Under the pieces are notes generated by a model. That model searched no databases. It saw only the letters and a program-made list of their open reading frames with translations, and was not told the origin of the DNA. Below are positions 5,516 to 64,000 of a stretch of DNA of 64,000 bases, in pieces. Position 1 is the first letter of the stretch. Each line of letters begins with the position of its first letter. The translations under genes were made by a program, and so were the position numbers. Origin of the DNA: Pseudomonadota bacterium (GTDB lineage: Bacteria > Pseudomonadota > Gammaproteobacteria > Burkholderiales > JABEVD01); assembly GCA_021848825.1 (NCBI GenBank), contig JAJZTQ010000002.1, forward strand, positions 5,129-69,128, read 5' to 3'.

Positions 5516-6273
5516 AGCCTCACCTCGATATGACGGGCTTTCATGTATTCCTTGGCCTCTCTCACGGTATATTCCCCATAATGGAAGATGCTCGCCGCGA
5601 GGACGGCGTCAGCATGCCCCTTCGTCACCCCTTCCGCGAGGTGCTCCAGGTTCCCCACGCCGCCGCTGGCGATGAGGGGGATGTCGAGGGCATCGGATAC
5701 GGAACGGGTGAGATCGAGATCGAATCCCATCTTGGTGCCGTCCCTGTCCATGCTGGTCAGCAGTATTTCTCCCGCACCCATCTGCTGCATCCTCACCGCC
5801 CATTCTATCGCATCCAGGCCGGTCTGTTTTCTCCCGCCGTGGGTGAATACCTCCCATTTGTTTTCAGCCGTCTTCTTCGCGTCTATCGCAACGACGATGC
5901 ACTGGGATCCGAATCGGGATGACGCTTCGCTGACCAGTTCGGGGTTGGATACCGCGGAAGTGTTCATGCTGACCTTGTCGGCGCCTGCGTTGAGCAGATT
6001 CCTGACATCCTGGACGGACCTGACTCCTCCTCCCACGGTCAACGGGATGAAAACCTGCGACGCGACATCCTCGATGATCCTGAATATCAGGCCGCGCCCA
6101 TCGGAGCTTGCCGTGATGTCCAGGAAGGTGAGTTCGTCGGCGCCCTGTTCGTCGTATCGCCTGGCGATTTCAACCGGGTCGCCGGCGTCCCTCAATCCGA
6201 CGAAATTGACTCCCTTGACGACGCGCCCTGCAGTCACATCCAGGCAGGGAATGATTCTTTTCGCGAGTCCCAT
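5512..6273 (-). CDS. hisF: imidazole glycerol phosphate synthase cyclase subunit
   Basis: [13 protein letters not shown]...[13 protein letters not shown]...ASGGVG. Start trimmed from 6333 to ATG 6273, 1 nt after the hisA stop. Confidence 0.95.
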
Positions 6274-9597: not shown

Positions 9598-11725
<2,128 letters not shown>

Positions 11726-11734
11726 GATTTCCTC

Positions 11735-12490: not shown

Positions 12491-13386
12491 TGCTTCCTCA
12501 TGATTTCGACGAAAACATCCTCGAGATCGGGGTGAGGGAGCACCATGTCGACAACCCTGATCCCCGCCTGCCTGATTTTTTCGAGCATCGGCTCGAGATC
12601 CGTGAATGCTTCCAGCTTCAAAACATGGTAGCCCGATTCATGCTGGAGAAGCTCGGTCTCGAGCGAATCGGGCAGGTTGTCCGGGACGAGCTGGAGCTTG
12701 ACCCTTCTTCCCGGGCAGGTCTTGAGGAGATTGCTCGTGGTGTCGAGCGACACGATCCTGCCCGATTTCAGCATCGCTATCCTGCCGCAAAGGGCTTCCG
12801 CTTCATCGAGATAATGCGTTGTGAGCACGATGGTGTGTCCCGATTGATTGAGCGATCTGACGAATGCCCAGAGCGACTGCCTGAGCTCCACATCCACCCC
12901 CGCGGTGGGTTCGTCGAGGATGATGACAGGGGGCTTGTGGACCAGCGCCTGGGCAATCAGGACCCGGCGCTTCATGCCGCCGGAGAGCGCCCTCATGTTC
13001 GTGTCGGCCTTGGCCGAAAGATCCAGGCGATCGAGGATTTCTTCTATCCAGGCTTCGTTTGCGGAAATCCCGAAATAGCCGGACTGCACTTCAAGCACTT
13101 CCCTGACCGTGAAGAAGGGATCGAATACGAGTTCCTGGGGAACGACCCCGACGGCAAGCCTGGCCTCGCGGTATTGCCTCGTCACGTCATGTCCCATGAT
13201 GGAAAGATTCCCGCTGTCGGGGCGTGTCAACCCGGAAAGCAGGTTGATCAGCGTGGTTTTTCCTGCCCCGTTCGGGCCGAGCAGACCGAAGAATTCCCCC
13301 TGCATGATTTCGAGATCGACGGAGTCGACCGCCTTCAGGCTGCCGAACTGCTTGCACGCCTGACGGATTGCTATCGCCGGCATCAT
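12487..13386 (-). CDS. ABC transporter ATP-binding protein (YadG-like)
   Basis: Walker [10 protein letters not shown], signature LSGGMKRR, Walker B ILDEPTAGVD. Start trimmed to ATG 13386 (MMPAIAIRQ), an ATGA overlap with the mlaB stop. Confidence 0.88.
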   Translation of the reverse strand: MMPAIAIRQACKQFGSLKAVDSVDLEIMQGEFFGLLGPNGAGKTTLINLLSGLTRPDSGNLSIMGHDVTRQYREARLAVGVVPQELVFDPFFTVREVLEVQSGYFGISANEAWIEEILDRLDLSAKADTNMRALSGGMKRRVLIAQALVHKPPVIILDEPTAGVDVELRQSLWAFVRSLNQSGHTIVLTTHYLDEAEALCGRIAMLKSGRIVSLDTTSNLLKTCPGRRVKLQLVPDNLPDSLETELLQHESGYHVLKLEAFTDLEPMLEKIRQAGIRVVDMVLPHPDLEDVFVEIMRKQ

Positions 13387-20130: not shown

Positions 20131-21098
20131 GCACGCTGATGGATGCAATCAGGAAAGCGGAATCGGAGCCTGAATCAGGGGACATCTCGATCGAGCCCGT
20201 GCCCCCTTCCCCCCACAAGCAGGATGAAAGGCAGGCAGCCGAAAAGCTCTTCGCGGTGAAATCGTCGCGGGGAGGGCGCTACCGATTCTGGATACTGACA
20301 GGCATTGCAGTCCTTCTGGCGGTTTTCGCTGCGGTCTATTACTGGTACAGGATGCCTGAAACGCCGGTGACCCAGCCTCCTCCGGAGGTGGCCGCCATTC
20401 CCCTTCCGCCGCCCCAGCCTGAGAAGGCGTCCGAAGTCCAGGCCGTGCCGAAACAGGAGGAAGCGCCCAAGACTGAAGAGCCGAAGACTGAAGGGCGGCC
20501 CGCCGAGGCCGTCAGCGTGAAGGAGCATCCGGCTAAGGAAATGGTCAGCCCGCTCTCCGTTCGCGGCTACGAGGCGATGTCGGTCAGGAATCTGGATGCG
20601 GCGAGAAGGGATTATGCAAGGCTGCTTGCGCATGATCCCCAGAACAGGGAAGCGCTGCTCGGTCTTGCCGCGATTGCCCTGAAGCGGGGGAGAACCGAAC
20701 TCGCCGAGCGCTATTACAGGAGAGTGCTGCAGATCGATCCTGAAGACCCTGTCGCCACGGCAAGTCTGGTCGACATGCAGAATTCCCCGGAAGGGGAGAG
20801 CAGGCTGAAGACGCTGCTCAGGCAGTCTCCAAATTCGGGCTCGCTCTATTTCAGTCTGGGCAATCAGTATGCATCGAGGTCGCAATGGGCGGACGCCGAG
20901 CAGGCCTATTTCAGCGCCTTCGGGAACCAGTCTGACAATCCTGATTATGCATTCAATCTCGCCGTGAGCCTGGATCACCTGAATCAGCAAGCCCTCGCGC
21001 TGAAGTATTACAGGGTGGCGCTTTCGCTTTCCGGAAAGGGTTTTCCAGGATTCGATCAGAAGGCGCTGGAAGCCAGGATAAGGGAACTCGAAAAATGA
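20127..21098 (+). CDS. mshN: TPR-repeat pilus biogenesis protein (MshN-like)
   Basis: MSTLMDAIRKAE N-terminus, one TM, Pro/Glu-rich linker, C-terminal TPR repeats. Position between secretin and ATPase as in msh loci. Confidence 0.6.
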   Translation: MSTLMDAIRKAESEPESGDISIEPVPPSPHKQDERQAAEKLFAVKSSRGGRYRFWILTGIAVLLAVFAAVYYWYRMPETPVTQPPPEVAAIPLPPPQPEKASEVQAVPKQEEAPKTEEPKTEGRPAEAVSVKEHPAKEMVSPLSVRGYEAMSVRNLDAARRDYARLLAHDPQNREALLGLAAIALKRGRTELAERYYRRVLQIDPEDPVATASLVDMQNSPEGESRLKTLLRQSPNSGSLYFSLGNQYASRSQWADAEQAYFSAFGNQSDNPDYAFNLAVSLDHLNQQALALKYYRVALSLSGKGFPGFDQKALEARIRELEK

Positions 21099-22792
21099 GC
21101 GAGCGGGACGAACCTGACCCCAAGCTGCTTGGCCAGATGCTGATCGAGAAGGGCGTGATCAGCGAGGATCAGCTGAGGATCGCGCTCGTCGAACAGGGAA
21201 AGCATCATCTGAGGCTGGGCAAGCTGATGGTCGGGCTTGGTTTCCTGACAGAGGGGGCCATGCGCGACGTGCTCTCCGAAAGCATGGGTCAGGAGACCGT
21301 CGATCTTTCCAGGGTGGTGGTCGATGCCGCGGCGGTCAAGCTGATTCCGCAGGAAGTCGCGAGACGCCATCAGGTTCTTCCCGTCTCGCTGGACAGGAAC
21401 AGCCGCATCCTCTCTCTCGCCATTTCCAATCCGGAGAACATCATCGCGCTCGATCAGGTCAAGGCGCTGCTCGGCGAGGACTACGAATTGCATCTTCTTC
21501 TCGCTGCGGAATCCGAGATCATGCATGCGATCGACCAGCATTACGGATTCGAGCTCTCCATCGAAGGCATACTCCAGGAAATCGAGCCGGGCGAAATCGA
21601 CTATCCTGCGCTGCAGGTCGGCGTGACCGAGTTTTCCCAGCCCGTCGTTCGGCTCATCGATGCGCTCCTTTCGGATGCCGTGCAGAGGGGAGCATCCGAT
21701 ATCCATTTCGAGCCGGAACACAGTTTCTTGCGCATCAGGTGCAGGATAGACGGCGTCTTGCGCCAGCAGAGAAGCCTGCACAAGTCATACTGGTCTCCCA
21801 TGGCGGTGAGGCTGAAGGTCATGAGCGGCATGAACATCGCCGAGAACAGGGCGCCCCAGGACGGGCATTTCTCGCTTCGCCTCTCAGGGAGGCAGATCGA
21901 CTTCAGGGTTTCGGCCGAACCGACCACGCATGGCGAGAACATCGTGCTTCGAATCCTGGACAGGCAGAAAGGGATTGTTCCGCTCGAGGATCTCGGGATG
22001 GGCGACAAGGAACTCGGACTGCTCGAGGAGATGATTTCGAAGACGGAAGGCATCATCCTGGTCACGGGACCGACGGGCTGCGGAAAGACGACGACGCTTT
22101 ATTCCATATTGAGCAGGATCAATACGGAGGCGGTCAACATCATGACGCTCGAGGACCCTGTCGAGTATCCGATGCCGATGATCAGGCAGGCTTCCGTCAA
22201 TGAAATGGCCAAGCTCGATTTCGCGAGCGGCATCAGGTCGATGCTGAGGCAGGATCCGGACATCATCCTGGTCGGCGAGGTCAGGGATCAGCCCACTGCC
22301 GTGATGGCGTTCAGGGCCGCGATGACAGGACATCAGGTCTACACGACGCTCCACACGAATTCCGCTATAGGCGCGATTCCAAGGCTGTTCGATCTCGGCA
22401 TCCATCCCGAAATCATGGCCGGGAACATCATCGGCGTGATCGCGCAGAGGCTTGCCAGGAGGCTTTGCCTGAACTGCAGGATGGAGGCGGATGCAGGCGA
22501 ACAGGAAATCAGGATTCTCGGCGGAAATTCGCGGATCTATCGGGGAAAAGGATGCGAAGCCTGCGATTTCCAGGGCTATTCCGGCCGTTTCGCGATCATG
22601 GAGATCATCAGGCTCGACGAGGATTTCGACGACCTGATCGTGCGCGGAGGGACATTGCGCGAAATGAGGAATCTGGCGCGCGAGAAGGAATTCAGGACGC
22701 TTGCGCAAAATGCCGTCCAGTCCGTGCGCTCAGGCATGACTTCGCTGGAAGAGATCCTGCGGGTGGTCGATCTGACCGGAAGGTCGGCATGA
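21095..22792 (+). CDS. mshE: type IV filament extension ATPase, MshE/GspE family with MshEN-type N-domain
   Basis: N-terminal tandem 24-aa motifs LLGQMLIEKGVISEDQLRIALVEQ / RLGKLMVGLGFLTEGAMRDVLSES. Walker A GPTGCGKTTT, DPDIILVGEVRD, GHQVYTTLHTN, Cys motifs CLNC...CEAC. Confidence 0.88.
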   Translation: MSERDEPDPKLLGQMLIEKGVISEDQLRIALVEQGKHHLRLGKLMVGLGFLTEGAMRDVLSESMGQETVDLSRVVVDAAAVKLIPQEVARRHQVLPVSLDRNSRILSLAISNPENIIALDQVKALLGEDYELHLLLAAESEIMHAIDQHYGFELSIEGILQEIEPGEIDYPALQVGVTEFSQPVVRLIDALLSDAVQRGASDIHFEPEHSFLRIRCRIDGVLRQQRSLHKSYWSPMAVRLKVMSGMNIAENRAPQDGHFSLRLSGRQIDFRVSAEPTTHGENIVLRILDRQKGIVPLEDLGMGDKELGLLEEMISKTEGIILVTGPTGCGKTTTLYSILSRINTEAVNIMTLEDPVEYPMPMIRQASVNEMAKLDFASGIRSMLRQDPDIILVGEVRDQPTAVMAFRAAMTGHQVYTTLHTNSAIGAIPRLFDLGIHPEIMAGNIIGVIAQRLARRLCLNCRMEADAGEQEIRILGGNSRIYRGKGCEACDFQGYSGRFAIMEIIRLDEDFDDLIVRGGTLREMRNLAREKEFRTLAQNAVQSVRSGMTSLEEILRVVDLTGRSA

Positions 22793-23982
22793 CCCTCTAC
22801 GCCTACAGGGCCTTGAACCAGCAGGGAGAGGTGAGAAAAGGCGTGCTCGATGCCTTGAGCGAATCGGATCTCGAAGAGCGGCTGGAACGAATCGGCATGG
22901 AGCTCATATCGTACAGGCCGGCGCTGAAGAAGAGTTTCGGGAAAAGGGTCGGGCGGCGCGATCTGATCACCTTCTTTTTCAATCTCGAGCTGCTGACGAG
23001 GGCCGGCGTGTCCCTCGTCGAAAGCCTGACCGATATCAGGGATACCATGGATATTCCCTATTTCAGGGAAATCATCACTGAAATGATCGAAAACATAGAG
23101 GGAGGCATGCAGTTTTCCCATGCCATGTCCTTTTATCCCAGGATATTCGACACCGTCATGGTCAACCTTGTCAGGGCGGGCGAGGAGAGCGCGAAGCTGC
23201 CCGAAATATTCAGGCACCTGACGGATTCGCTCAAATGGCACGACGAAATCAGTTCCCAGACCAGGCAGATCCTGCTTTATCCGGCATTCGTCGGAACAGT
23301 CGTGATCGGCATCACTTTCTTCCTGATGACCTATCTCGTTCCGCAATTGGGCATCTTCTTCAGGAACTTCGGGCAGACCCTTCCTCCCCAGACCCGGGCG
23401 CTGATCGCGGTTTCGAATTTTTTCATTCATTACAAGTACTGGATTCTCCTGGCTCCCTTCCTGCTCTACTTCTTCCTGAAATCGGCGGGCATGCTGAGCG
23501 AGCGGGCAAGGTACTGGCTGGACAGCCTGAAAATCAGGATATGGATCATCGGTCCCATCCTGCTGAAGGTCATCCTGGCGAGATTCGCCAATACGTTCGC
23601 CATCATGTACGAATCGGGCGTGAGCATACTCGACTGCATCGCCATTTCTTCCGGCATCACCGGCAATCTGGTGATATCGAGAAAGCTTGTGCAGGCGAGG
23701 CGGGAGATAGAGGCCGGCAAGACGCTGCTGCAGAGCTTCCAGGGTTCGAACGTCTTTCCTGCCCTCGTGCTCAGGATGATCAAGGTGGGCGAGGCGACAG
23801 GAAGGGTGGACGATGCGCTCTATAACGTCAGCTATTTCTACGAAAGGGACACCCGGGAAGCCATCAGAAGAGTCCAGGTCATGATCGAGCCGGTACTGAC
23901 CGTCGTCCTGGGCTCATTGCTCGGCTGGATCATGCTTTCGGCGATCACCCCGATATACGACATGCTCGGAAAAATCAGATGA
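22789..23982 (+). CDS. mshG: type IV filament platform protein (GspF/PilC/MshG family)
   Basis: Start trimmed to ATG 22789 (MTLYAYRALNQQGE), an ATGA overlap with mshE. Duplicated GspF domain with three TM blocks. Confidence 0.85.
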   Translation: MTLYAYRALNQQGEVRKGVLDALSESDLEERLERIGMELISYRPALKKSFGKRVGRRDLITFFFNLELLTRAGVSLVESLTDIRDTMDIPYFREIITEMIENIEGGMQFSHAMSFYPRIFDTVMVNLVRAGEESAKLPEIFRHLTDSLKWHDEISSQTRQILLYPAFVGTVVIGITFFLMTYLVPQLGIFFRNFGQTLPPQTRALIAVSNFFIHYKYWILLAPFLLYFFLKSAGMLSERARYWLDSLKIRIWIIGPILLKVILARFANTFAIMYESGVSILDCIAISSGITGNLVISRKLVQARREIEAGKTLLQSFQGSNVFPALVLRMIKVGEATGRVDDALYNVSYFYERDTREAIRRVQVMIEPVLTVVLGSLLGWIMLSAITPIYDMLGKIR

Positions 23983-52631: not shown

Positions 52632-52697
52632 GATTACCATATATTGCGGCAGATGGTGCATAATTGTCCCGATTGTCCGTATGATTCGAAATATGAC

Positions 52698-53507
52698 ATG
52701 GATTCAAGCCGTGTACTGGAAATTGCCAGCAAATCCGATGCAGGTCTTGTGCGTTCGCACAACGAGGACAGCATCGGTTCGGATGCTTCAATCGGGCTTG
52801 CAGTCCTGGCTGATGGCATGGGCGGATACAATGCCGGGGAGGTGGCGAGCGGCATCGCCGTTTCCATGATCACATCCGGCATGAAGGCCGCGCTTTCCGG
52901 CCGGGGACAACCGGATGAGGCCAGCGGGGAAAGCATGTTGCGCGAACAGGTTGCGGCTGCAAACAGCGCGATATTCAATGCCGCAAGGCAGAGAAAGGAA
53001 TGCGAAGGCATGGGGACGACCCTCGTCGCCGCGCTTTTCTTCGATGGGAAGGTGAGCGTCGCCCATCTCGGGGACTCCCGCATGTACAGACTGCGCGGCG
53101 GGAAGCTGGAGATCATGACGCACGACCATTCCCTGCTGCAGGAGCAGCTTGACAGCGGCATGCTGACAAAGGAAGAGGCCAGGTTCTCCCAGTACAGGAA
53201 CATCGTGACGAGGGCGCTGGGAATCGAACAGGATGTGGAGATAGAGATCAGGAGCTTCGATGTGCAGCCCGACGACCTCTACCTGCTTTGTTCAGACGGG
53301 CTGAATGACATGCTCGAAGACGAGGAAATAGGGCTTGTCCTGGATACGCTGAGATCGAATCTGAAGCTGGCGGCCGAGAAGCTCGTGGCTCTCGCAAATG
53401 AAAATGGCGGGCGCGACAACATTTCGGTTATCCTCGTGAAAGTGAAGCAGGGAATCGGGGTCCAGCGCGGACTGATGTCGAGGCTCATGTCATCATTCAG
53501 GAAATAA
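52698..53507 (+). CDS. PP2C-family Ser/Thr protein phosphatase
   Basis: KSDAGLVRSHNEDS, LADGMGGYNAGEVAS, HLGDSRMYR, LCSDGLNDML, NGGRDNISVILV. Start set at ATG 52698; the upstream ATG 52644 cannot be excluded. Confidence 0.85.
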   Translation: MDSSRVLEIASKSDAGLVRSHNEDSIGSDASIGLAVLADGMGGYNAGEVASGIAVSMITSGMKAALSGRGQPDEASGESMLREQVAAANSAIFNAARQRKECEGMGTTLVAALFFDGKVSVAHLGDSRMYRLRGGKLEIMTHDHSLLQEQLDSGMLTKEEARFSQYRNIVTRALGIEQDVEIEIRSFDVQPDDLYLLCSDGLNDMLEDEEIGLVLDTLRSNLKLAAEKLVALANENGGRDNISVILVKVKQGIGVQRGLMSRLMSSFRK

Positions 53508-53521
53508 AGGGGCAGTTTATC

Positions 53522-54235
53522 ATGTCGAAATTGATTCTCAGCCTTGACGGGAAGGAGCTCAAGGAAGTCCCGCTCGACAAGGAGCGCATCCTGATAGGGA
53601 GAAAATCGCAGAACGACATCCAGATCGACGATGTCGCCGTGAGCGGCGAGCACGCAGTCGTCATCACGATTCTCAACGATTCCTTCCTTGAGGACATGGG
53701 GAGCACGAACGGCACCAGAGTCAATGGCACCAGCGTCAAGAAATACTTCCTGCAGAACCATGATGTGATAGGGATAGGGAAATACAAGCTCACCTACATC
53801 CACGAGGCGGTCCCGCGTCCCGCCATTCACGAGCCGGCCCAGCGCGCTGTGCCTGACCTCGAGAAGACGGTCATGCTGCGCCCCTCCAGCGTATCGGCGA
53901 TGCTGCCTTCCTCCGTTTCCGCGCCGGTGGAAAAGTCGGAGGAGAAGGCGCCCCCTCCTCCGCCCAAGCCATCGTCAGGCGCTGCGGTGCAGCTTCTCAC
54001 CGGACCCAGTGCCGGACGGGAGCTCGATCTCGTCAAGAACCTGACCACATTGGGCAAGCCCGGCGTACAGGTTGCGGTCATCACGAGAAGGCCGCAGGGC
54101 TTCTTCATCACGCATGTCGACGGGGAAAAATCGCCTGTGCTCAATGGCAAGCCGATAGGATTGCAGCCCCATCCCCTCAAGGACCATGATATCGTCGAGC
54201 TGCTCGGCATCAAGATGGAATTTTTTCTGAAATAG
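53522..54235 (+). CDS. FHA-domain protein (canonical N-terminal FHA, Pro-rich linker, degenerate C-terminal FHA-like domain)
   Basis: N-domain IGRKSQNDIQIDDVAVSGEHAVV...GSTNGTRVNG. Linker EKAPPPPPKPS. C-domain TTLGKPGVQVAVI...VLNGKPIG...HDIVELLGIKMEF lacks the R/SxxH phosphothreonine-contact residues. Confidence 0.8.
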   Translation: MSKLILSLDGKELKEVPLDKERILIGRKSQNDIQIDDVAVSGEHAVVITILNDSFLEDMGSTNGTRVNGTSVKKYFLQNHDVIGIGKYKLTYIHEAVPRPAIHEPAQRAVPDLEKTVMLRPSSVSAMLPSSVSAPVEKSEEKAPPPPPKPSSGAAVQLLTGPSAGRELDLVKNLTTLGKPGVQVAVITRRPQGFFITHVDGEKSPVLNGKPIGLQPHPLKDHDIVELLGIKMEFFLK

Positions 54236-54243
54236 GCAAAACA

Positions 54244-55008
54244 GTGAAGCTCAGGGTTCTCGGGTGCAGCGGCGGGATAGGAGGAGAATTGCAGACCACT
54301 TCCTTTCTTCTGGATGATGACATACTGATCGATGCGGGAACCGGGACCGGAAGGCTGTCCCTGGAAGCGATGCGCAACATAGATCATATCTTCCTCACCC
54401 ACTCCCATCTCGATCATGTCGCATTCATTCCGCTGCTTGTCGACAGCGTGGGCTATCTCAGGCAGAAGCCGATAACGGTCCATGCGATTCCTGAAACCAT
54501 AGCGGCATTGAAGCAGCATCTTTTCAACTGGGTGATATGGCCCGATTTCAGCGTGATCCCGAACACGGAATCTCCCTATCTGGTTTTCGAGGAGATTTCG
54601 GTGGGGGAAACGGTCAGGCTGGGGGATCGGAAAATCACGGCCTTGCCTGCAGTCCATACCGTACCTGCAGTCGGCTATCATCTGGAAAGCGGAAAGGGAA
54701 GTCTCGTTTTCAGCGGCGATACCACCACCAACGATGCATTCTGGGAACGGGTGAATGAAATCGACGATCTCAGATACCTGATCATCGAGACCGCCTTTTC
54801 AAACGGCGAAAGGGAAATCGCGATCCTTTCGAAGCATCTTTGTCCCAGCCTTTTGGGCGAAGAACTGGCTAAACTTGAAAAGGATGTGCCTGTCTACATC
54901 ACGCATCTCAAGCCTGGGGAATTGTCGCTGATCATGGCGGAGATCGGCGAGGGCATATCGGGGGTCAGAACAGAAATGCTTGTAAACGAACAGATATTCG
55001 AAATATGA
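54244..55008 (+). CDS. class II-like 3',5'-cyclic-nucleotide phosphodiesterase (MBL fold)
   Basis: MKLRVLGCSGGIGG...TSFLLDDDILIDAGTG...IFLTHSHLDHVAFIPLL matches the HxHLDH class II PDE signature region. GTG start. Confidence 0.7.
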   Translation: MKLRVLGCSGGIGGELQTTSFLLDDDILIDAGTGTGRLSLEAMRNIDHIFLTHSHLDHVAFIPLLVDSVGYLRQKPITVHAIPETIAALKQHLFNWVIWPDFSVIPNTESPYLVFEEISVGETVRLGDRKITALPAVHTVPAVGYHLESGKGSLVFSGDTTTNDAFWERVNEIDDLRYLIIETAFSNGEREIAILSKHLCPSLLGEELAKLEKDVPVYITHLKPGELSLIMAEIGEGISGVRTEMLVNEQIFEI

Positions 55009-55009
55009 C

Positions 55010-57388
55010 ATGTCCAAACTGACAGACATATCGAGCGGCAGCATCCCTGTGCCGGGGGAAAGCCTTGCCGATGTCAGCATCAAGCTGAATTTCACCAAGG
55101 CCCTCCAGTCCCTGACCAACAGGATTCATGCCACGGGAAATTTCGACGAGATCATCTTCGATCTCGGCAAGGACATCTGCACCCTTTTCAACGCGGACAG
55201 GATCACGATCTACGTCGTGAGCGAAGACAAGACATCCATCGTCTCGAAAATCAAGACAGGGCTTTCCTCGTTCAAGGACTTGAAGCTGCCGATTTCCGAT
55301 CAAAGCATCGCGGGCTATGTCGCGAGGCACAAGAAGATGGTGAACGTCAAGGATGTGTACGACGAAAAGGAGCTGCAGTCCTACAGTCCCCAGCTTCACT
55401 TCATGAGGGAGGTGGACAAGCGCACGGGCTACCGGACCAAGCAGATGCTCGTCGCGCCGATAGTCGATGCGGAAAACGAGCTCGTGGGCGTGCTTCAGAT
55501 CATCAACAACAAGTTCGGCCTGCCATTTCAGCCGATGACGGAAGAGGGGGTGGTCGAACTCGCCAAGACCCTCGCCATCGCATTCAAGCAGAGACAGCGT
55601 CCCCATCAGCTCGTCAGGACGCGTTTCGACGTGCTGATAGCGGAAGGCGCGATTTCTGCAGTCGAGTTCGATCTTGCGTCCAGGTCCGCGAGAAGGCGGG
55701 ACGTGCCGCTGGAAGACGTGCTGCTGGACGAATTCCAGGTGAAGCCGGCTGCATTGGGCAAGTCGCTTGCTCACTTCTTCGACGTGGAATACGAGCCTTT
55801 CAGGTCTGACAGGACAAGACCCGCCGATCTCTTGAAGAACATCAAGCGGGATTATGTCGAAGCGAATCAATGGCTGCCTGTCGAGGAGGCCAAGGAAGGC
55901 ATCGTCATCATCAGCCCGGACCCGGAGAGGGCGCAGGGTTCCCGCATTCCCCACAATGTCTTTCCGAAGAGAAAGCTCGTTTTCAGGGTCTGTTCCCATC
56001 GGGAATTCGCGCAGACGGTCAACCTTTTTTATGCCGAAGAAGGCGGTTCTTCCATAGGAGATCTGCTTTCTTCCATGGATGACGAATCGGAGAGCGAGGA
56101 CATTTCCGACGAGCTTTCTGCTGCAGCGGACAACGAACTCGTCAAGCTCGTCAACAAGATCATCACGGATGCGCACAGGATGGGGGCATCCGACATCCAT
56201 ATCGAACCTTCTCCTGGAAAGGGAAAGACGCTGGTCAGGTTCCGCAAGGACGGAACGCTGCTGCCTTATGTCGAAGTCCCCGCCTCCTACAGAAACGCCA
56301 TCGTTGCCCGCGTCAAGATCATGTGCGATCTGGATATCTCCGAAAAGAGAAGGCCGCAGGACGGCAAGATCCTTTTCAGGAAATTCGCGCCGCTCAACAT
56401 CGAATTGCGTGTCGCGACCATCCCCTCGGCGGGAGGGGTGGAAGACATCGTGATGAGGATTCTGGCATCGGGCGACCCCATTCCCCTTGAAAAGATAGGC
56501 TTCTCTCAAAAGGCGTTCGATACGCTGAAATCGATCGTCACGAAGCCTTACGGCCTTTTCCTGGTCTGCGGACCGACAGGTTCGGGAAAGACGACGACGC
56601 TCCACTCGGTGCTCGGATACATCAATACCCCGCAGACCAAGATATGGACTGCCGAGGATCCGGTCGAGATCACCCAGAAGGGGTTGCGGCAGGTTCAGAT
56701 GAATCCCAAGGCCGGCCTCACTTTCGCGACGGCGATGCGCGCCTTTCTCCGCGCCGATCCGGATGTGATCATGGTGGGCGAAATGCGCGACAAGGAGACC
56801 ACATCGGTAGGCATCGAGGCGTCCCTCACCGGGCACCTCGTGATGTCGACGCTTCACACCAACAGCGCACCCGAGAGCATCGTCAGGCTGCTCGACATGG
56901 GCATGGATCCTTTCAATTTCTCCGATGCCATTCTCGGCATACTGGCGCAGAGGCTGATCAAGCGATTGTGCAGGCATTGCAGGAAAGCCTCGGTTGCAAC
57001 GGAACGGGAAATCAGGCAGCTCCTTGCCGAATACTGCGAGGAGCTGAAGCATACTTCGGCCTGGAAGCAGGATTCAGAAGCGGTTCTGAAGAAGATCTAC
57101 GAAGAATGGGCTGGAAGCTACGCGAATGAAAAAGGCGAATTCGTCCTTCATCATCCTGTCGGCTGCCCCGAATGCAGCGGCACGGGATACAGCGGCCGTC
57201 AGGGCATATTCGAACTGCTCAAGGGCACGGACGAGATCAAGCGGCATATCCAGGAAAGGGCGCAGGTTTCAACGCTTTTTGCGACCGCGCTTGACGAAGG
57301 CATGCGCACCCTGAAGCAGGACGGTATAGAAAAGGTGCTTCAGGGCATCACCGACATGCATCAGGTGAGAACGGCCTGCGTCAAATAA
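55010..57388 (+). CDS. GspE/PilB-family secretion ATPase with N-terminal GAF domain
   Basis: 792 aa. GAF-like region approx aa 30-195 (ADRITIYVV...LVAPIVDAENELVGVLQIINN), T2SSE_N-like region, Walker A GPTGSGKTTT, DPDVIMVGEMRD, GHLVMSTLHTN, Zn motif CRHC...CPEC. Confidence 0.85.
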   Translation: MSKLTDISSGSIPVPGESLADVSIKLNFTKALQSLTNRIHATGNFDEIIFDLGKDICTLFNADRITIYVVSEDKTSIVSKIKTGLSSFKDLKLPISDQSIAGYVARHKKMVNVKDVYDEKELQSYSPQLHFMREVDKRTGYRTKQMLVAPIVDAENELVGVLQIINNKFGLPFQPMTEEGVVELAKTLAIAFKQRQRPHQLVRTRFDVLIAEGAISAVEFDLASRSARRRDVPLEDVLLDEFQVKPAALGKSLAHFFDVEYEPFRSDRTRPADLLKNIKRDYVEANQWLPVEEAKEGIVIISPDPERAQGSRIPHNVFPKRKLVFRVCSHREFAQTVNLFYAEEGGSSIGDLLSSMDDESESEDISDELSAAADNELVKLVNKIITDAHRMGASDIHIEPSPGKGKTLVRFRKDGTLLPYVEVPASYRNAIVARVKIMCDLDISEKRRPQDGKILFRKFAPLNIELRVATIPSAGGVEDIVMRILASGDPIPLEKIGFSQKAFDTLKSIVTKPYGLFLVCGPTGSGKTTTLHSVLGYINTPQTKIWTAEDPVEITQKGLRQVQMNPKAGLTFATAMRAFLRADPDVIMVGEMRDKETTSVGIEASLTGHLVMSTLHTNSAPESIVRLLDMGMDPFNFSDAILGILAQRLIKRLCRHCRKASVATEREIRQLLAEYCEELKHTSAWKQDSEAVLKKIYEEWAGSYANEKGEFVLHHPVGCPECSGTGYSGRQGIFELLKGTDEIKRHIQERAQVSTLFATALDEGMRTLKQDGIEKVLQGITDMHQVRTACVK

Positions 57389-57389
57389 T

Positions 57390-59519
57390 TCAGTCCTTCA
57401 TCTCCCTTTTCTTGCGGTAGCTCGACAGCAGCTTGTACGCGATCAGTCCGAGCATGATCAGTATCAGTGCCAGGATGCCGTAGAAAACATAGGGATGGGC
57501 ATAGAGAAAGGAGGATGCGAAAGAGATGTCCCCCTTCTCCCCGGTGGTGTATTTTTTCCCGACGGAGATCGACACCACGTCATAGTTCGGCACATTGAGC
57601 TTGATCAGCGAAACGCCGCCTTTCATCCTCGCCAGTATGTCCGGCTGCAGTAGGGCATCGCCGAGCTTGGCAACGTCGCCGTCGTCCTGCGCCGTCATGA
57701 GCACAACGGACCTGCCTTTCTTGTATGGCGATTCGAATTCCATGACAAGTCCGGTGCCGTTTCCGAGTCCGCTCAGCTGCTTGCTGAATGAAATCGTTGT
57801 TTCGCTGTCCCAGCCCCTGCTGACGGGATAGGGTATGGTGGCGATGCCGTGCAGTTGTACGGGCGCGCGCGCCATGATCGACTCTGGAATGGAGGAGGAT
57901 TTCCCGATGACCAGTATTTCTCCTTCCCAGTTCTTCGGCTCGCTGAAGGAGATTCGGGTTTCGAAGAGGGGGAAACCGTTCTTCTGGGTGATCATTCCTA
58001 TCATGTCGAGCGCCGCGTCGATCGAGGCGTCATCGGGTTTGGGCAGATAGACGATGGTCTTGAACCCGTCAGGCCACCTCGTGAAGGGAAAGCCGTTGAG
58101 CGAGAAGAGTTCGAGCTTGGGCAATTCGACGAAATGCGGCATGGGCGGAAAGAAAAGCGTCGAATTTCCGAAAATCGTCACGAAAAGCCCATCCGTTATG
58201 TCGACATCGCATACCTGGTGCTGGGTATTGAGATAGGGCTTGAATGAAATCGTGTTGGTTCCCGGCTTGAACAGGTAGGTCGGGATATCCATCCTGTAGT
58301 CCTTGATGTAATTGCCATCAGGATTGTTGAGGTGGATATCGCGAAACTCCTTGCCATTCACGTTAATGCTGAGCGAGGAATCCTGGCGCAAGCCTGAACC
58401 GTAGGAAAGGTTCAATATCAGTTTTGCATACTGGTTCTGCCTGATCAGAAAGTCGGGCGGGAGCCTGAAGGTGAGGATAGATGCGGCATCGACAAAACCG
58501 TGGAAGCTGTGGGAATCCATCCCCAGCGTCTTGAAATCATAGACCTTGTCTGAAGAAAGCACTTCTCTTCCGCCATACATCGAAATGTCGGGCATGGTGA
58601 AGCTGTAGGCGCGCAATTCATCCGTTCCCGGATAAGGGAGGGACATGTTGGTGAAGGTTTCGGCAGCGATCTTGATCGCCTTGGCCGTGTCGCCGGACAC
58701 CACAATCAGGGCGTGCTGATCGTCCTCTGCTCCGGCTTCGGGCAAATGGAGAATCTTGATGTAGCCGCCCTGTCCCTCGGGAAGGGTCTTGCCGTATCTG
58801 GCGAGCACCCCGTCTGCAAACCGGGTCGTTCCGATCAACACATTGTCCATCCCCGGCTTGATATCGAGAGAATGCGAGAACTTTACCTGGCGATAATCGA
58901 AATGCCTCGCGATGCCGGATGCGACGATTCCGGCCAGCGTCGTGATTTCGGGGGAAGTGGCATCCATGACCAGGTTGATCGAGGCCTCGGGAACCTGTTT
59001 CGGGTCGAGAATCAGACCGATTGCTTCGGCCAGATGCAGCGGCAGCGGCTTCAGGCTGTAATCGAGCTGGATGGTGGAATCGGTCAGGCTGATGTTTGTC
59101 CAGAGATCCGGGGAACAGATCTGTTCGCACTGGCCGGAGAGATAATGCTGGACGACCTGGAAAGAAACGGTGTTGTATCCTGCCTTCAGGTGGTCAGGGG
59201 GAAGCGGCACATCCACCACGCCTTCCGGCGACTGGGTATTGAGCTTGAATTGCGAGACGGACATGCCATTGAGCTGCACCGCCATCTGGGAGCTGCTTGC
59301 AATCATGTTGTTCGAAGCCATGTAGTGCAGCTTCAGGGTGGCGCCGTGCACATCCCATCTTTCAGGAATGGGAATGGACAAATTCTGAACCGAGCGGATG
59401 CATTTCAGTTCGAGGGTGGGAACCGGCGAGAACTTCTGCAGCGGCAGGGTGAGTGTATCGGCAAATGCTGTCGTGCTCAGGAACAGCATGGCAAGGATCA
59501 GGCTGAATGATTTTGTCAT
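57390..59519 (-). CDS. bcsB: BcsB-like periplasmic subunit of a cellulose-synthase-type complex
   Basis: 709 aa. Signal peptide MTKSFSLILAMLFLSTTAFA, large periplasmic body, single C-terminal TM anchor (FYGILALILIMLGLIAYKLL), directly downstream of bcsA. Family call rests on architecture and context. Confidence 0.7.
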   Translation of the reverse strand: MTKSFSLILAMLFLSTTAFADTLTLPLQKFSPVPTLELKCIRSVQNLSIPIPERWDVHGATLKLHYMASNNMIASSSQMAVQLNGMSVSQFKLNTQSPEGVVDVPLPPDHLKAGYNTVSFQVVQHYLSGQCEQICSPDLWTNISLTDSTIQLDYSLKPLPLHLAEAIGLILDPKQVPEASINLVMDATSPEITTLAGIVASGIARHFDYRQVKFSHSLDIKPGMDNVLIGTTRFADGVLARYGKTLPEGQGGYIKILHLPEAGAEDDQHALIVVSGDTAKAIKIAAETFTNMSLPYPGTDELRAYSFTMPDISMYGGREVLSSDKVYDFKTLGMDSHSFHGFVDAASILTFRLPPDFLIRQNQYAKLILNLSYGSGLRQDSSLSINVNGKEFRDIHLNNPDGNYIKDYRMDIPTYLFKPGTNTISFKPYLNTQHQVCDVDITDGLFVTIFGNSTLFFPPMPHFVELPKLELFSLNGFPFTRWPDGFKTIVYLPKPDDASIDAALDMIGMITQKNGFPLFETRISFSEPKNWEGEILVIGKSSSIPESIMARAPVQLHGIATIPYPVSRGWDSETTISFSKQLSGLGNGTGLVMEFESPYKKGRSVVLMTAQDDGDVAKLGDALLQPDILARMKGGVSLIKLNVPNYDVVSISVGKKYTTGEKGDISFASSFLYAHPYVFYGILALILIMLGLIAYKLLSSYRKKREMKD

Positions 59520-59536
59520 TTTATGGATATTTCTTG

Positions 59537-62224
59537 CTAGATATTGTTTTCGCGTGGTTTGGCAGGTCTTCTGAAAAATATGGGTGATGAGCGTATCAGC
59601 TGCAGGCTGCTTCCGTATACGTATTTGACGATTCTGGGATAAGTCGACGTGTCCGGAATGAATTCAGTGCCGCAAAGAAGCTTGTTGCCGCGCTTCACCG
59701 CCCTTCTTATCCTGCAGTCGAACTGATATTGGGCACCCTCTTTGGTCGTGATGTCGAGCGTCACAGGCTCGCCCCCATGCAATGGCAGGGGCAATTCAAT
59801 CAATATCCCGATGCCGGAGAGCGATATATCCATGATATTGCCTTGGACGCTCGCATTCAGGCTGGGGAAGTAAACCATGGCCCGTCCTTTGCCTTCGATG
59901 CGCTGAAACTTGCGAACTGGCCTCTTTTTCACCAGTTCAAAAATCCTGGCCTGCCCCTGGTAAAAATAATAAACAGTTCTGCTCAGGGTCATCAACAACA
60001 TGTCAAGCAGCAAAGACGAGGTAAGGCACTGTATCAAGAGCCTCCAGAGGAATTTCATGGAGTCTGAAAAGAAAGCGAATCCGCTTACCCAGATTGCCTT
60101 GACGCCCATTTTCGAAAAATGCCAGAGCATGTGGAATGTATCGCGTTTCCTCGCCTTCGCGTTCCAGATTTCCTGCCATCTTTGGCTGTCGCCGAAGACG
60201 TAGCTGATGATTTCTGCAGCAGGCGCGGCCAGGAATTCGCTCCCGCAGACATACCTGCCGCTCATCTTTTCGATGTGCCTGATATTGTTTTCGAAGCGAT
60301 ATTCACGGCCATAGCTGTCCCTGACTTCCAGAATGATCCTGTCCTGCTCCATTGGTAAAATGGACGAATCGATTTCGAAACCTATCCCTGTCCTCGAGAC
60401 GTCGCGGACTTTGCCGACGACCGATTTTCCCAGGCGCTGGAAGCGGACGATCACGTCACCGCTGGACGCTATCCGGTGAAATTGCCGCTCCTGCTTTCTC
60501 TCCCACAGCGCGCCCAGTGAAACCAGGACGATGGAAAGGTTATAAAGCGACCATGCGCCCGTCACTGCGATAACGTCGCGCATGATCGGTGTGGCAAACC
60601 ATTTTATGACTGAAAGAATCAGGGCGGCGACGTTGAAGGCGATGAGCAGGAAAAAAGGCGTTGCAATCGGACTCAGGTATTCCCTTGTGTTGAGTTTTCC
60701 CTTCGGGGTAACCTTGAATGTCGGTTTCCAGGGGTTGGCCACCGCGGAGAGGATGGCCGGAATCAGGAAAAGAGACTGGATCGTCTCGTAGATCTCCGAG
60801 AAGAAAGGGTTCCTCGAGCCGGAATAGAAAAAGTCCATGATCACCGAAATGCTCAGCACGTACGGAAGCGTGAACGAAATGATCTGAAGCCACGAGGCGT
60901 TATAGATGTTGAATCCGAGAATGAGGTAGGCGGCGGGGGCGATGAGGTAGATCACGCGCGCAAAACCGAACAGCCAGAAAAAACTGAAGTTGAAGTAATT
61001 CAGCCTTTGCCAGAAAGAAAGTCCCTTCATCTTCAGCGGGTTGTTGAACTGGGCGAGCTGTATCATGCCTTGCGCCCAGCGCGAGCGCTGGATCACATAG
61101 TCGTCATAGGTTTCCGGAGACAAGCCGCAGACCATCGGCTTGTTGACATAAATGCTCCTGTAGCCGCGCCTGTGCAGATGGAAGGCGGTTTCGACATCTT
61201 CCGTGATGGTGTTGCCGTAGAGTCCGCCTTCCTGTTCGAGATGCTTGCGCCTCAACAGCGCCGCAGATCCGCAAAAGTAGCTGGAATTCCAGAAATCCAT
61301 GGCGGGGTGAAGTTTGCGATAGAACAGGTCGCTTTCGGCATAGGGATTGGCGATGCCTGTCAGGCCCTTTTCGACTGGAGACGGGTTGATGAAAAAATGC
61401 GGCGTCTGAACGAGGAATACTTTCGGATCGACGATGAAATGCCCTACGGTATTCTTCAGGATATCCTTTGTCGGCACATGATCGCAGTCGAGAATCAGCA
61501 CAAGATCGCCCGAAGTGTGCTTCAGCGCATGGTTGATATTGCCGGCCTTCGCTTTCTGATTCGTTTCGCGCGTGATGTATCCGACGCCGAGTTCAGCTGC
61601 GACCTGCCTCAGGCTGCGATGCCTTTCCCATGCGTCCGTTCCGGATTCAGCATGGCTGCGCTTGTTCCGGGTGCTGCCGTCATCCAGGATATAGACATTC
61701 AGCTTGTCTTTCGGATAATCGATCTGGGCTGCCGCAGTGGCGGTAATGCGAACGATTTCTTCGGGTTCGTCATAAGTCGGGATGAGGACATCCACAGTGG
61801 GCAGCAATGCAGCATCTTCAGGCAAGGGAATGATGGGGCGATCGAGAGGCCAGACATTGATGAACATGCCGAGCAGGAGCATGACGAAACCGTATATTTC
61901 GGCAAGGTAGACGAGCATCATCGCTGCGAAATCCAGTGGGCCGGTATAGAAAAGGGTGCCGAATGTCCGCCACTGGATGTAGCGCAACCCCATGAATGTC
62001 ACCAGCAGGATCATGAGCAGGCGCCAGGGCTGCTCCCTTGATTTTTTCCAGAGGTACATCATGAAAATCAGGGCGAAGCCGCCCCATCCGAGCACCATCT
62101 GCCTGGAAAGGTCATAATATTCGTAGGTGAACTGAAGCAGATAGACAAGGGCGGCGATCAATATCGCACCGGTGGCCGCAAGCTGCAAATTGCTGTACTG
62201 TGCACGCACGCCTGTTCGGGTCAT
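59537..62224 (-). CDS. bcsA: BcsA-like processive GT2 beta-glycan synthase with two PilZ modules
   Basis: GT2 motifs DDGS (181-184), DCDH (246-249), TED (341-343), QRSRW (379-383). PilZ 1 RQFHR (580-584) plus DVSRTG (608-613). PilZ 2 RKFQR (771-775) plus DISLSG (799-804). Confidence 0.88.
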   Translation of the reverse strand: MTRTGVRAQYSNLQLAATGAILIAALVYLLQFTYEYYDLSRQMVLGWGGFALIFMMYLWKKSREQPWRLLMILLVTFMGLRYIQWRTFGTLFYTGPLDFAAMMLVYLAEIYGFVMLLLGMFINVWPLDRPIIPLPEDAALLPTVDVLIPTYDEPEEIVRITATAAAQIDYPKDKLNVYILDDGSTRNKRSHAESGTDAWERHRSLRQVAAELGVGYITRETNQKAKAGNINHALKHTSGDLVLILDCDHVPTKDILKNTVGHFIVDPKVFLVQTPHFFINPSPVEKGLTGIANPYAESDLFYRKLHPAMDFWNSSYFCGSAALLRRKHLEQEGGLYGNTITEDVETAFHLHRRGYRSIYVNKPMVCGLSPETYDDYVIQRSRWAQGMIQLAQFNNPLKMKGLSFWQRLNYFNFSFFWLFGFARVIYLIAPAAYLILGFNIYNASWLQIISFTLPYVLSISVIMDFFYSGSRNPFFSEIYETIQSLFLIPAILSAVANPWKPTFKVTPKGKLNTREYLSPIATPFFLLIAFNVAALILSVIKWFATPIMRDVIAVTGAWSLYNLSIVLVSLGALWERKQERQFHRIASSGDVIVRFQRLGKSVVGKVRDVSRTGIGFEIDSSILPMEQDRIILEVRDSYGREYRFENNIRHIEKMSGRYVCGSEFLAAPAAEIISYVFGDSQRWQEIWNAKARKRDTFHMLWHFSKMGVKAIWVSGFAFFSDSMKFLWRLLIQCLTSSLLLDMLLMTLSRTVYYFYQGQARIFELVKKRPVRKFQRIEGKGRAMVYFPSLNASVQGNIMDISLSGIGILIELPLPLHGGEPVTLDITTKEGAQYQFDCRIRRAVKRGNKLLCGTEFIPDTSTYPRIVKYVYGSSLQLIRSSPIFFRRPAKPRENNI

Positions 62225-62225
62225 A

Positions 62226-63032
62226 TCACCTTGCGGATTGTGCAGGGCTGATAGAATCGCTTACGGAGCGCCGGCTGTCCCTCGTCTGTTCCTTGCCGAC
62301 CAAAGCCATGACTGCCGCCGCGATGCCTATGAGCAGCACGGCCATCAGGAAGAATTTCATGCCGAATGATCTTGCAGGGGGAGAACTCTGGGCAGGCTTG
62401 TCGTCCAGGCTCCTGCCCTGCTTGTCGAGCTCTATTTCCTTCGGATTCCAGAATACCTTGTATGCGTTGAACGCATCCTTCTTGCCTTTGAGCGTGATCT
62501 GCTTGATGAACCGGCAATAGTTTTCGCTCTTGTCTGAAAGGCTGTTGTAGGTTTCTTCGGAGATATAGATTTCTCCTGCCGTGGCGGAAGATTCGAAGCG
62601 CGATGCGGTGTTGACGACGTCTCCTGCAATGTCGTTCTTTTCGATGATGCATTTTCCGGTATGCATGCCGATCCGCATCAATACGGGCGTCTTGTATTTT
62701 TTCGACATGTTGAGTCCGTCCATGCCTTGCTGGATGCGCACAGCCGCACGGACCGCATCCTGGGCATTTTCGAAATAGGAGAGCGTGCCGTCCCCGATGG
62801 ACTTGATGAACACCCCGTTGTTTTCCTTGATCGCCGGCAACACGATCTGGTTCTGGTCCTTGATCAGCGTGCGGCTGACCAGGTCACCTTCGGTCTCTGC
62901 TATGGTGGTCGAGCCCTTGAGATCGGTGAATACGACCGTCAGTACCTTGGTGAACTTGTCGTTGAAAACTGCTTCCAGCTTTTCGCGCTCTTCTAGATAC
63001 TTGTCCAGTTCATCCTGTTTAGATTCGTCCAC
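62226..63032 (-). CDS. class III nucleotidyl cyclase (adenylate-type residues) with C-terminal membrane tail
   Basis: GTG start 63032. VVFTDLKGST, IKSIGDGTL, NDIAGDVVNTASRFES. C-terminal TM FFLMAVLLIGIAAAVMALVG. Stop lies 1 nt from the bcsA ATG. Confidence 0.85.
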   Translation of the reverse strand: MDESKQDELDKYLEEREKLEAVFNDKFTKVLTVVFTDLKGSTTIAETEGDLVSRTLIKDQNQIVLPAIKENNGVFIKSIGDGTLSYFENAQDAVRAAVRIQQGMDGLNMSKKYKTPVLMRIGMHTGKCIIEKNDIAGDVVNTASRFESSATAGEIYISEETYNSLSDKSENYCRFIKQITLKGKKDAFNAYKVFWNPKEIELDKQGRSLDDKPAQSSPPARSFGMKFFLMAVLLIGIAAAVMALVGKEQTRDSRRSVSDSISPAQSAR

Positions 63033-63304: not shown

Positions 63305-64000
63305 ATGAAAAACGATTTTGTCGTTAAATTAAACAATGGGGAAAATCGGCGGGCCGGCTCATGGCGCGTCGCGGCGGCGATGCTTGCCGGATGCCTTTGC
63401 GCACCCCTCTGGCTTCACGCCGAAACCCCTCATGCCGCTCCCTCCGCGGCGCCGGACGAAAGACCGTTGTGGCGTCTGTTGAACGACAAAAAGTACCGGG
63501 AACTCGAGAAAGAAATCGGCAGCATGAAATCGGCTCATCCTGGATGGAAGCCGCCTGGGGTGTTGGTCAGCCTTCTGAAGCAGAACCTGCTCCGAATCGA
63601 AATCGAGGATGCAATCGCGAAAAGGGATGCGGGGAAAATAGCGGAACTGGGGAAAACCGATCCGGAATATTTTTCCTGCGATCATGTCGACTGGGCATGG
63701 GCGCTCGCCGATGCGCGCGCCCTGCTCAAGGAGGCTTCGCTGCTTCAGGGTCTGTACCGGCTCATTCCGGAGTGCAGGGAAGCAGATCGCCTTGCAACGC
63801 TTTACAAGGCCAGGAAATGGCTGAACGATGCTGACTACGGATTGCTGCTCGAGCGGGAGGCAAAAGCGAAGCGGTCGGGGCGGGATGAGGCGGAATTCGA
63901 GCGGCTGCGCTATGAATTTTCAATGGCGCAGCTCAAGACTTCCAATCGGGACTTCAAGACGGAGCTCTCCCGATTGTCGGGCGATATGGCCCGGTATCGG
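63305..64000 (+). CDS. secreted helical-repeat hypothetical protein (3' end outside window)
   Basis: The frame beginning at ATG 63305 is open for all 232 codons to the window end (not in the track, as there is no stop). MKNDFVVKLNNGENRRAGSWRVAAAMLAGCLCAPLWLHA looks like a signal peptide. The rest is Lys/Glu/Leu/Ala-rich and helical (PLWRLLNDKKYRELEKEI...). The track ORF 63361-63834 in another frame is Arg/Gly/Cys-rich and rejected. Confidence 0.5.
   Translation, partial: MKNDFVVKLNNGENRRAGSWRVAAAMLAGCLCAPLWLHAETPHAAPSAAPDERPLWRLLNDKKYRELEKEIGSMKSAHPGWKPPGVLVSLLKQNLLRIEIEDAIAKRDAGKIAELGKTDPEYFSCDHVDWAWALADARALLKEASLLQGLYRLIPECREADRLATLYKARKWLNDADYGLLLEREAKAKRSGRDEAEFERLRYEFSMAQLKTSNRDFKTELSRLSGDMARYR

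Follow-up and report, generated by a model that had tools for sequence, protein, structure and literature searches.

A dual-PilZ variant of the cellulose synthase BcsA and its cyclase gene partner in uncultured betaproteobacteria

BcsA is the protein in which cyclic di-GMP (c-di-GMP) signaling and the PilZ domain were discovered, and gating of the synthase by a single PilZ domain is the textbook case. The bcsA gene studied here encodes two PilZ modules, which raises the question of where the second one came from, what it binds, and what it contributes to the enzyme. The gene lies in a 64,000-nucleotide (nt) stretch, hereafter the window, of contig JAJZTQ010000002.1 (positions 5129–69,128, forward strand) from a Pseudomonadota bacterium (assembly GCA_021848825.1; Burkholderiales, JABEVD01). 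A first-pass annotation, made from the letters and the open reading frames (ORFs), had reported a BcsA-like synthase with tandem PilZ modules separated by an extra hydrophobic insert, and had proposed that the second module either adds cooperative or dual-ligand gating or senses a different nucleotide. Our analysis identified the dual-PilZ BcsA as a real, lineage-restricted and uncharacterized variant of a known enzyme, in which the second module is most likely a second c-di-GMP site.

Two PilZ modules on a BcsA core

The gene (bcsA; 59537–62224, minus strand) encodes the UDP-forming catalytic subunit of cellulose synthase as an 895-amino acid protein. Scanned in isolation against Pfam PilZ (PF07238, gathering score 22.5), module 1 scored 31.2 bits (E 2.8e-7) and module 2 scored 42.3 bits (E 1e-10, profile positions 2–91 of 102), giving the two independent matches that the first-pass annotation had expected. 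The segment between the modules, scanned alone, had no match in Pfam. Module 1 (residues 576–690; 60155–60499, minus strand) comprised an RxxxR linker, a beta-barrel and hinge helices, and aligned with the BcsA PilZ domains of both R. sphaeroides and E. coli. Module 2 (residues 767–879; 59588–59926, minus strand) comprised an RxxxR linker, a beta-barrel and two short helices.

PilZ domains contact c-di-GMP through the motifs RxxxR and D/NxSxxG, and each module carried both. The first motif read RQFHR in module 1 (R580, R584; 60473–60487) and RKFQR in module 2 (R771, R775; 59900–59914), and the second read DVSRTG (D608, S610, G613; 60386–60403) and DISLSG (D799, S801, G804; 59813–59830), all on the minus strand. 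The first-pass annotation had placed them correctly, at residues 580–584, 771–775, 608–613 and 799–804, and its nucleotide ranges for the two modules converted without error (residues 576–680 to 60185–60499 and 768–875 to 59600–59923). The two motifs of module 2 were ~28 residues apart, in the canonical PilZ arrangement. In the AlphaFold2 (AF2) model, module 2 had the six strands expected of a beta-barrel, in a PilZ-like order (781–786, 791–800, 804–809, 820–826, 832–845, 848–855), preceded by an extended RxxxR linker as in module 1 and followed by C-terminal helices (862–870, 873–879), with predicted local distance difference test (pLDDT) values of mostly 89–96 in this block. Module 2 has every PilZ feature that can be assessed from sequence and model.

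The rest of the protein resembled BcsA throughout. It matched TIGR03030 (CelA) at 790 bits against a cut-off of 699.1 over residues 16–711, it matched canonical BcsA in phmmer at E 4e-130, and Pfam detected glycosyltransferase family 2 (GT2) families plus two PilZ stretches in the whole sequence. The GT2 catalytic core, interface helix and transmembrane (TM) helices 5 and 6 occupied residues 142–460 (60845–61801, minus strand) and retained D246, D248, TED (D343), E371 and Q379xxR382W383. These seven residues and the FxVTxK gating loop (F503, V505, T506, K508) were invariant in 93/93 dual-PilZ homologues (defined below). The AF2 model, built from a 119-sequence alignment, had a mean pLDDT of 91.4 and a predicted template modeling score (pTM) of 0.88. 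Its best Foldseek match was the solved, c-di-GMP-bound R. sphaeroides BcsA 4p00_A (E 2.6e-53, target-normalized TM-score 0.88, 725 aligned columns), whose whole 728-residue chain was covered, so the modeled fold is that of solved BcsA, with a TM bundle, a GT domain and a PilZ. Module 1 followed directly after the last TM helix and had R580/R584, D608/S610/G613 and the E371 partner, and the obligate partner BcsB was encoded next to BcsA (bcsB, 709 amino acids, 17 nt downstream; 57390–59519, minus strand; Pfam BcsB 357 bits and NCBIfam BcsB models). The protein passes each test of BcsA identity that sequence and model can address, and the gene is predicted to encode a working BcsA-type cellulose synthase.

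The 895-residue protein was a single uninterrupted ORF. Six contigs in assemblies from NCBI, ENA and Logan encoded the identical protein, one of these contigs belonging to the NCBI metagenome-assembled genome (MAG) GCA_027331305.1, and since the contigs represent three independent sources, a frameshift or assembly artifact is excluded. Canonical BcsA (R. sphaeroides 4HG6/4P00; E. coli 7LBY/9FMV/9B8V) shares with it the GT2 core (D,D,D and QxxRW), the TM bundle, the FxVTxK loop, the R580/E371 pair, the PilZ after TM8, the C-terminal interface helix and the downstream bcsB. The window protein differs in having ~160 extra residues after the interface helix, made up of a copy of TM8 and a second canonical PilZ, and its operon is headed by a cyclase gene. 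The earlier statement that characterized BcsA proteins carry a single PilZ holds for solved and characterized BcsA.

Origin, topology and distribution of the extension

The two modules shared 31% identity over 110 residues (BLASTP, E 7e-19), and hhalign profile-profile comparison of family sub-alignments matched residues 539–682 to 730–875 across 144 columns (probability 100%, E 4.4e-52). The internal duplication called in the first-pass annotation was therefore real, and the matched stretch extended beyond PilZ to cover the end of TM7, TM8, the RxxxR linker, the barrel and the first hinge helix. In the AF2 model the order was TM8 (546–572; 60509–60589), linker, barrel 1 (590–664), hinge helices (669–690) and helix H1 (696–735; 60020–60139), followed after a one-residue break by helix H2 (737–766; 59927–60016), an extended linker, barrel 2 (781–855) and the final helices (862–879), all encoded on the minus strand. 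Because the profile match includes the helix before each linker, H2 is a copy of TM8 and forms the first part of the duplicated unit.

H1 was amphipathic and had a different identity. The overlay on 4p00_A, the phmmer alignment with E. coli BcsA, which reached residue 730, and the single-PilZ relatives, which terminate exactly where H1 ends, together identify H1 as IF-CT, the interface helix found at the C-terminus of ordinary BcsA. This helix has been described as lying on the inner leaflet (PMC8892547). H2 and module 2 alone were extra, at ~160 residues. The hydrophobic stretch reported in the first-pass annotation exists, but it is not one inserted element, as H1 is the normal interface helix and only H2 is new.

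We scored topology on the Hessa biological scale, as the median apparent free energy of insertion (dGapp, kcal/mol) over 89 family members. H1 had a median of 6.3–8.9, compared with 5.5 for interface helix IF3 and 0.3 for TM7. H2 had a median of 2.9 and TM3, TM5 and TM6 had medians of 3.3–4.5, while H2 of the query itself scored 6.7. By this measure H1 scores like an interface helix and the family H2 falls within the range of the weaker TM helices. About five K/R residues follow H2, as they do TM8. Two helices joined by a tight turn cross the membrane either zero or two times, and we therefore infer that module 2 is cytoplasmic in either case. We favor a flat, interface-bound H1–H2 hairpin, with a marginal two-pass hairpin as the alternative. 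Topology had been named in the first-pass annotation as the check that could place module 2 in the periplasm; an odd number of membrane crossings was not supported, and such a location is not indicated.

A single TM helix at residues 729–748, which would make module 2 periplasmic, was considered and rejected. This was the only Kyte-Doolittle peak at TM level in the stretch (score 1.84), but it straddled the break between H1 and H2 in the AF2 model and was not conserved in the family (median dGapp 9.1).

Among the 120 best homologues listed, 93 clusters at 90% identity carried the extension, with 46–62% identity to the query. Named sources among these clusters were MAGs of Gallionella, Gallionellaceae, Nitrosomonadales and Paucimonas. 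In the module tree, all 93 module 2 units formed one clade separate from every module 1, including those of the most distant members P0096 and P0120, and this monophyly indicates a single ancient duplication. The module 2 ligand residues R771, R775, D799, S801 and G804 were invariant (93/93). Module 1 was equally strict at R580, R584, S610 and G613 (93/93 each), with D608 conserved in 91/93 and replaced by N in the other two. At the sequence level, both ligand motifs are under purifying selection. Because module 2 has the ligand motifs of module 1, constrained at least as tightly, it most probably binds c-di-GMP as well.

A scan of GTDB species representatives used only two peptide patterns drawn from a 6-sequence alignment, so its count of 14 species is a lower bound. 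It recovered at least 14 loci, all in MAGs, from Gallionella, Gallionellaceae, Nitrosomonadales, Ca. Nitrotoga, Rhodoferax and Burkholderiales; 13/14 had the dual-PilZ extension and the other (L017) was a single-PilZ relative. When the extension was searched exhaustively with HMMER in a set of 1.84 billion representatives clustered at 50% identity, only 21 proteins reached E ≤ 1e-10 and only 5 reached E ≤ 1e-30. The dual-PilZ variant is real, maintained and restricted to one clade of uncultured betaproteobacteria, carried by Gallionellaceae, Nitrosomonadales and Burkholderiales of groundwater-type metagenomes. Our literature search found no description of a BcsA or cellulose synthase with two, second or tandem PilZ domains, and the architecture went unmentioned in broad PilZ surveys (including 10.1101/814665) and in a review of Bcs systems (PMC8892547). 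Its being a common, already characterized architecture, which would have undercut the first-pass annotation, is thus not what we observed.

Several homologues varied in and around the extension. In the most divergent dual-PilZ members (P0120 and P0134), Pfam reported only one PilZ stretch at E ≤ 0.001, and domain-architecture databases probably under-count dual-PilZ BcsA. Many dual-PilZ homologues (among them P0037, P0039 and P0063; ~1009–1029 amino acids) had a further tail of 40–130 residues after module 2 that the window protein lacked. The tail in locus L026 (7948–10914) held two amphipathic repeats, KIITRMAKLLGKGVSYLFL and RVVKVLGKALTYIFL. One Gallionellaceae contig (L018) contained two dual-PilZ bcsA paralogues, P0044 and P0078, within one cluster (10001–12808 and 20640–22808). 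A single-PilZ BcsA of 966 amino acids in L025 (10075–12975, minus strand) ended in five NRR[KR]IPRI[GV][RP] repeats. These peptides resemble RxxxR but come with no barrel; they might serve as additional motifs for docking or for binding c-di-GMP.

The cyclase partner and the role of the second module

On the minus strand of the window, ORFs annotated with Pfam and NCBIfam showed three tightly packed genes in the order cyclase, bcsA, bcsB. The cyclase (62226–63032, minus strand; 268 amino acids with a C-terminal TM anchor) ended 1 nt before the bcsA start codon. We examined 16 dual-PilZ loci with upstream DNA (the window, L004–L010, L012, L013, L016, L018, L019, L020, L024 and L026), and in all of them the cyclase gene was directly upstream of bcsA and co-oriented with it, at a gap of 1–91 nt. 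In the single-PilZ relatives (L017, L021, L022, L023 and L025), the cyclase was instead convergent and behind bcsB (5/5), so that gene order tracked architecture exactly (16:0 for dual-PilZ vs 0:5 for single-PilZ). Three cyclase homologues chosen regardless of BcsA were all in bcs clusters, and 24 further BcsA clusters were linked to listed cyclase clusters through equal-sized contigs. About 440 clusters matched the cyclase at E ≤ 1e-20. The catalytic domain of the cyclase was 70–85% identical across most loci, compared with 59–68% for the BcsA core. Rather than a chance neighbor, the cyclase is a conserved partner in this bcsAB clade. Since it was equally conserved beside single-PilZ BcsA, the partnership predates module 2 and does not need it. 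A literature search for linkage between cyclase and bcs genes found no paper.

The window cyclase belongs to class III, with a Pfam Guanylate_cyc (PF00211) score of 68.1 bits vs 21.9. Its best solved relatives were 3MR7 and Ma1120 (4WP9, a class IIIc-like mycobacterial cyclase), with which it shares the catalytic domain; FTD, KSIGDG and DIAGDVVNTASR aligned with both, as did the active-site residues. Of 18 aligned cyclases, 17 kept the metal-binding Asp residues together with the Lys/Asp specificity pair and the Asn/Arg residues; that of L012 was the exception. In class III cyclases the Lys/Asp pair confers adenylate specificity, and from its residues the neighboring enzyme is predicted to be adenylate-type, a source of cyclic AMP (cAMP). 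The bcs-linked cyclases differed from Ma1120 and 3MR7 in an N-terminal coiled-coil-like segment, the C-terminal TM helix and a conserved tail, E[ES][RK]RSIxxS. The anchor and tail suggest membership in a membrane complex.

Two variations were seen within the cyclase family. The bcs-linked cyclase carried an N-terminal Ser/Thr protein kinase domain in L008, L009, L010, L017, L018 (8237–9994) and L020 (8453–9994), and the cyclase-kinase gene of L018 directly preceded only the first of its two dual-PilZ paralogues. The cyclase of L012 (~5144–5644; 52.7% identity) had lost both the specificity Lys and Asp and had its catalytic Arg replaced by Lys, and was still directly upstream of a dual-PilZ bcsA. 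This copy hints at a non-catalytic role for the cyclase.

The gating mechanism of BcsA gives a starting point for the role of module 2. In R. sphaeroides BcsA, R580 of RxxxR is salt-bridged to E371, which holds the gating loop shut; when an intercalated dimer of c-di-GMP binds, it takes hold of R580 and the loop is released (PMC8892547). Because R580, E371 and FxVTxK are all present and invariant in the dual-PilZ family, module 1 is the gate. The explanation towards which we lean, without strong conviction, is that one ancient duplication copied TM8, the RxxxR linker, the PilZ barrel and the hinge helix and appended them after the C-terminal interface helix. Module 1 would remain the on/off switch through R580, E371 and the FxVTxK loop, and module 2 would act in the cytoplasm as a second receptor of intercalated c-di-GMP, kept near the inner face of the membrane by the H1–H2 hairpin. 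Its likeliest job would be to tune activation. It could do so by keeping a second c-di-GMP dimer beside the gate, which would make the response steeper, lower its threshold, or let ligand be handed over while synthesis proceeds processively. Module 2 may also couple the synthase to the membrane-anchored class III cyclase.

Known systems offer partial parallels. Additional intercalated c-di-GMP sites next to the BcsA PilZ are established for E. coli-type Bcs, where the BcsE/BcsRQ vestibule has been proposed to retain and recycle the activator (PMC8892547). Our preferred reading, by analogy, is that module 2 would work like these sites in cis. The BcsE/BcsRQ sites act in trans and have unrelated folds (I-sites on degenerate REC/GGDEF domains), unlike a second PilZ in cis, and no bcsE, bcsQ or bcsR was seen in the dual-PilZ clusters inspected. 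The nearest evolutionary analogy is found in soluble tandem PilZ-PilZ proteins (B. diazoefficiens Bll4394/Blr5568, S. meliloti SMc00999, M. xanthus PixB), which, like the xPilZ-PilZ proteins YcgR and MrkH, also arose from tandem PilZ duplication. Both copies in the PilZ-PilZ class often retain c-di-GMP motifs (10.1101/814665; PMC10118264). All of these proteins are small and soluble with adjacent domains, whereas here two long helices lie between the modules, both modules are part of a membrane synthase, and the duplicated unit includes a TM helix. The N-terminal copies of YcgR and MrkH have lost the motifs, while both modules here are canonical, each with its following helices, and have 70 helical residues between them, which sets the protein apart from the YcgR-like group.

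Some points weigh against this explanation. Module 2 is the somewhat faster-diverging of the two, at a mean pairwise identity of 50% compared with 60% for module 1, the single-PilZ sisters function with the same cyclase partner, making module 2 an add-on and not a necessity, and the proposed tuning role rests on analogy. The faster divergence, together with the homologues in which Pfam gives one PilZ stretch at E ≤ 0.001, could also be taken to mean that module 2 is a decaying relic or an assembly or annotation artifact without function. That is hardly credible given the identical protein on six independently assembled contigs, the 93 clusters at 90% identity that keep the module in frame with five invariant ligand residues, and the confident AF2 fold; the conservation data effectively refute it. 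Re-tuning of module 2 to cAMP or another cyclase product, which would give dual-ligand gating, appears very unlikely. The conserved partner cyclase, a gene near the operon resembling class II cAMP phosphodiesterases, and the cyclic mononucleotide (cNMP)-binding proteins encoded just beyond the window are all compatible with it. However, RxxxR and D/NxSxxG were invariant in 93/93 module 2 sequences, at least as strict as in module 1, and PilZ reviews name c-di-GMP only. We know of no PilZ domain that binds a cyclic mononucleotide. The cAMP-type enzymes that the first-pass annotation saw nearby thus gained in interest, as one is a conserved bcsAB partner, while its suggestion that module 2 senses a different nucleotide was not supported.

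The conserved cyclase also bears on an unlikely but not negligible alternative, in which module 2 would mainly dock or regulate the co-encoded enzyme in a c-di-GMP-dependent manner and the operon would be a physical device for c-di-GMP/cAMP cross-talk, with ligand-bound module 2 switching cAMP synthesis on or off, or the cyclase holding module 2 and thereby the synthase. We keep this alternative open because gene order differs exactly between dual-PilZ loci (upstream and co-oriented, 16/16) and single-PilZ loci (convergent behind bcsB, 5/5). In most of the same loci the cyclase catalytic domain (70–85%) was more conserved than the BcsA core (59–68%), the TM anchor and the E[ES][RK]RSIxxS tail suggest a membrane complex, L012 retains the cyclase gene despite lost specificity residues, and PilZ domains are known as protein-protein adaptors (bioRxiv 10.1101/814665). 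The difference in gene order is nevertheless not proof, because the cyclase partnership predates module 2. Further points against cross-talk are that the cyclase was equally conserved next to single-PilZ BcsA, that no BcsA-cyclase gene fusion occurred among the 120 + 120 proteins listed, and that the second dual-PilZ paralogue in L018 had no adjacent cyclase gene. In its fullest form, which we regard as tentative and rather doubtful, cyclase, BcsA (through module 2 and the H1–H2 hairpin) and BcsB would form one membrane complex in which module 2 occupancy controls cAMP synthesis or the state of the cyclase controls the synthase. Less probable again is that module 2 mediates c-di-GMP-dependent self-association of the synthase, either as a PilZ dimer like that of Alg44 or as a pair bridged by ligand, and so arranges the enzymes for a bundled product. 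In the alginate co-polymerase Alg44, as in BcsA, a PilZ that binds c-di-GMP as an intercalated dimer regulates a GT2 polysaccharide synthase (PMC8892547), though Alg44 is a separate protein with an N-terminal, unduplicated PilZ. The Alg44 PilZ dimerizes and that of canonical BcsA does not (PMC8892547), a capacity that a free second PilZ could supply. Related Gallionellaceae have bcsABCZ-like genes proposed for 'dread' filaments (PMC4643136), and L018 encodes two dual-PilZ paralogues in one cluster. These points are circumstantial, and nothing in the sequence sets self-association apart from the tuning role that we prefer.

With two intact PilZ receptors, dual-PilZ BcsA offers a natural system for how ligand stoichiometry sets an activation threshold, and a test case both for a synthase that keeps its own local c-di-GMP pool and for PilZ re-use after duplication. 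The presence of the cyclase in every related bcs cluster inspected, at the operon head exactly where module 2 occurs, suggests a new Bcs component and a direct link between c-di-GMP and cAMP. If the membrane complex outlined above exists, two second-messenger systems would be hard-wired at a polysaccharide synthase and the cyclase would be a new, unnamed Bcs subunit. Extracellular polysaccharide fibers matter for iron biomineral structures in the carrier organisms.

Neighboring genes

A bcsC-like gene lay divergent from the cyclase-bcsA-bcsB operon. Its 5' part was in the window (63305–64000, plus strand) and it continued past the window end, as resolved by the gene call in the identical contig L001, where the full 791-amino acid product contained TPR and BCSC_C domains (BCSC_C 167 bits). 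A search of the window for CRP boxes (TGTGA-N6-TCACA, ≤2 mismatches) gave 10 matches vs 19 expected, none of them in the intergenic region between the cyclase and bcsC-like genes. Promoter and terminator scans were at chance level only, and an Rfam scan of the window found no RNA family and hence no c-di-GMP riboswitch.

Other nearby genes were related to signaling. A gene for a GAF-MshEN-T2SSE ATPase (55010–57388, plus strand; MshEN 32.5 bits) was convergent with bcsB; MshEN is a c-di-GMP receptor domain, and a stand-alone MshEN protein was encoded after bcsC in L020. Also convergent with bcsB was a gene for an MBL-fold protein (54244–55008, plus strand) matching class II cAMP phosphodiesterase (PDEase_II, 54 bits). 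In place of the kinase domain that some bcs-linked cyclases carry, the window had an FHA gene (53522–54235, plus strand) and a PP2C gene (52644–53507, plus strand) a few kb from the bcs operon. Beyond window position 64000, L001 (289–6398) encoded two cNMP-binding proteins (BrkB-cNMP and SpoIIE/HATPase_c_2-cNMP), two STAS proteins and one GAF-HD-GYP protein, so that the genes past the window end form a dense cyclic-nucleotide and partner-switching neighborhood.

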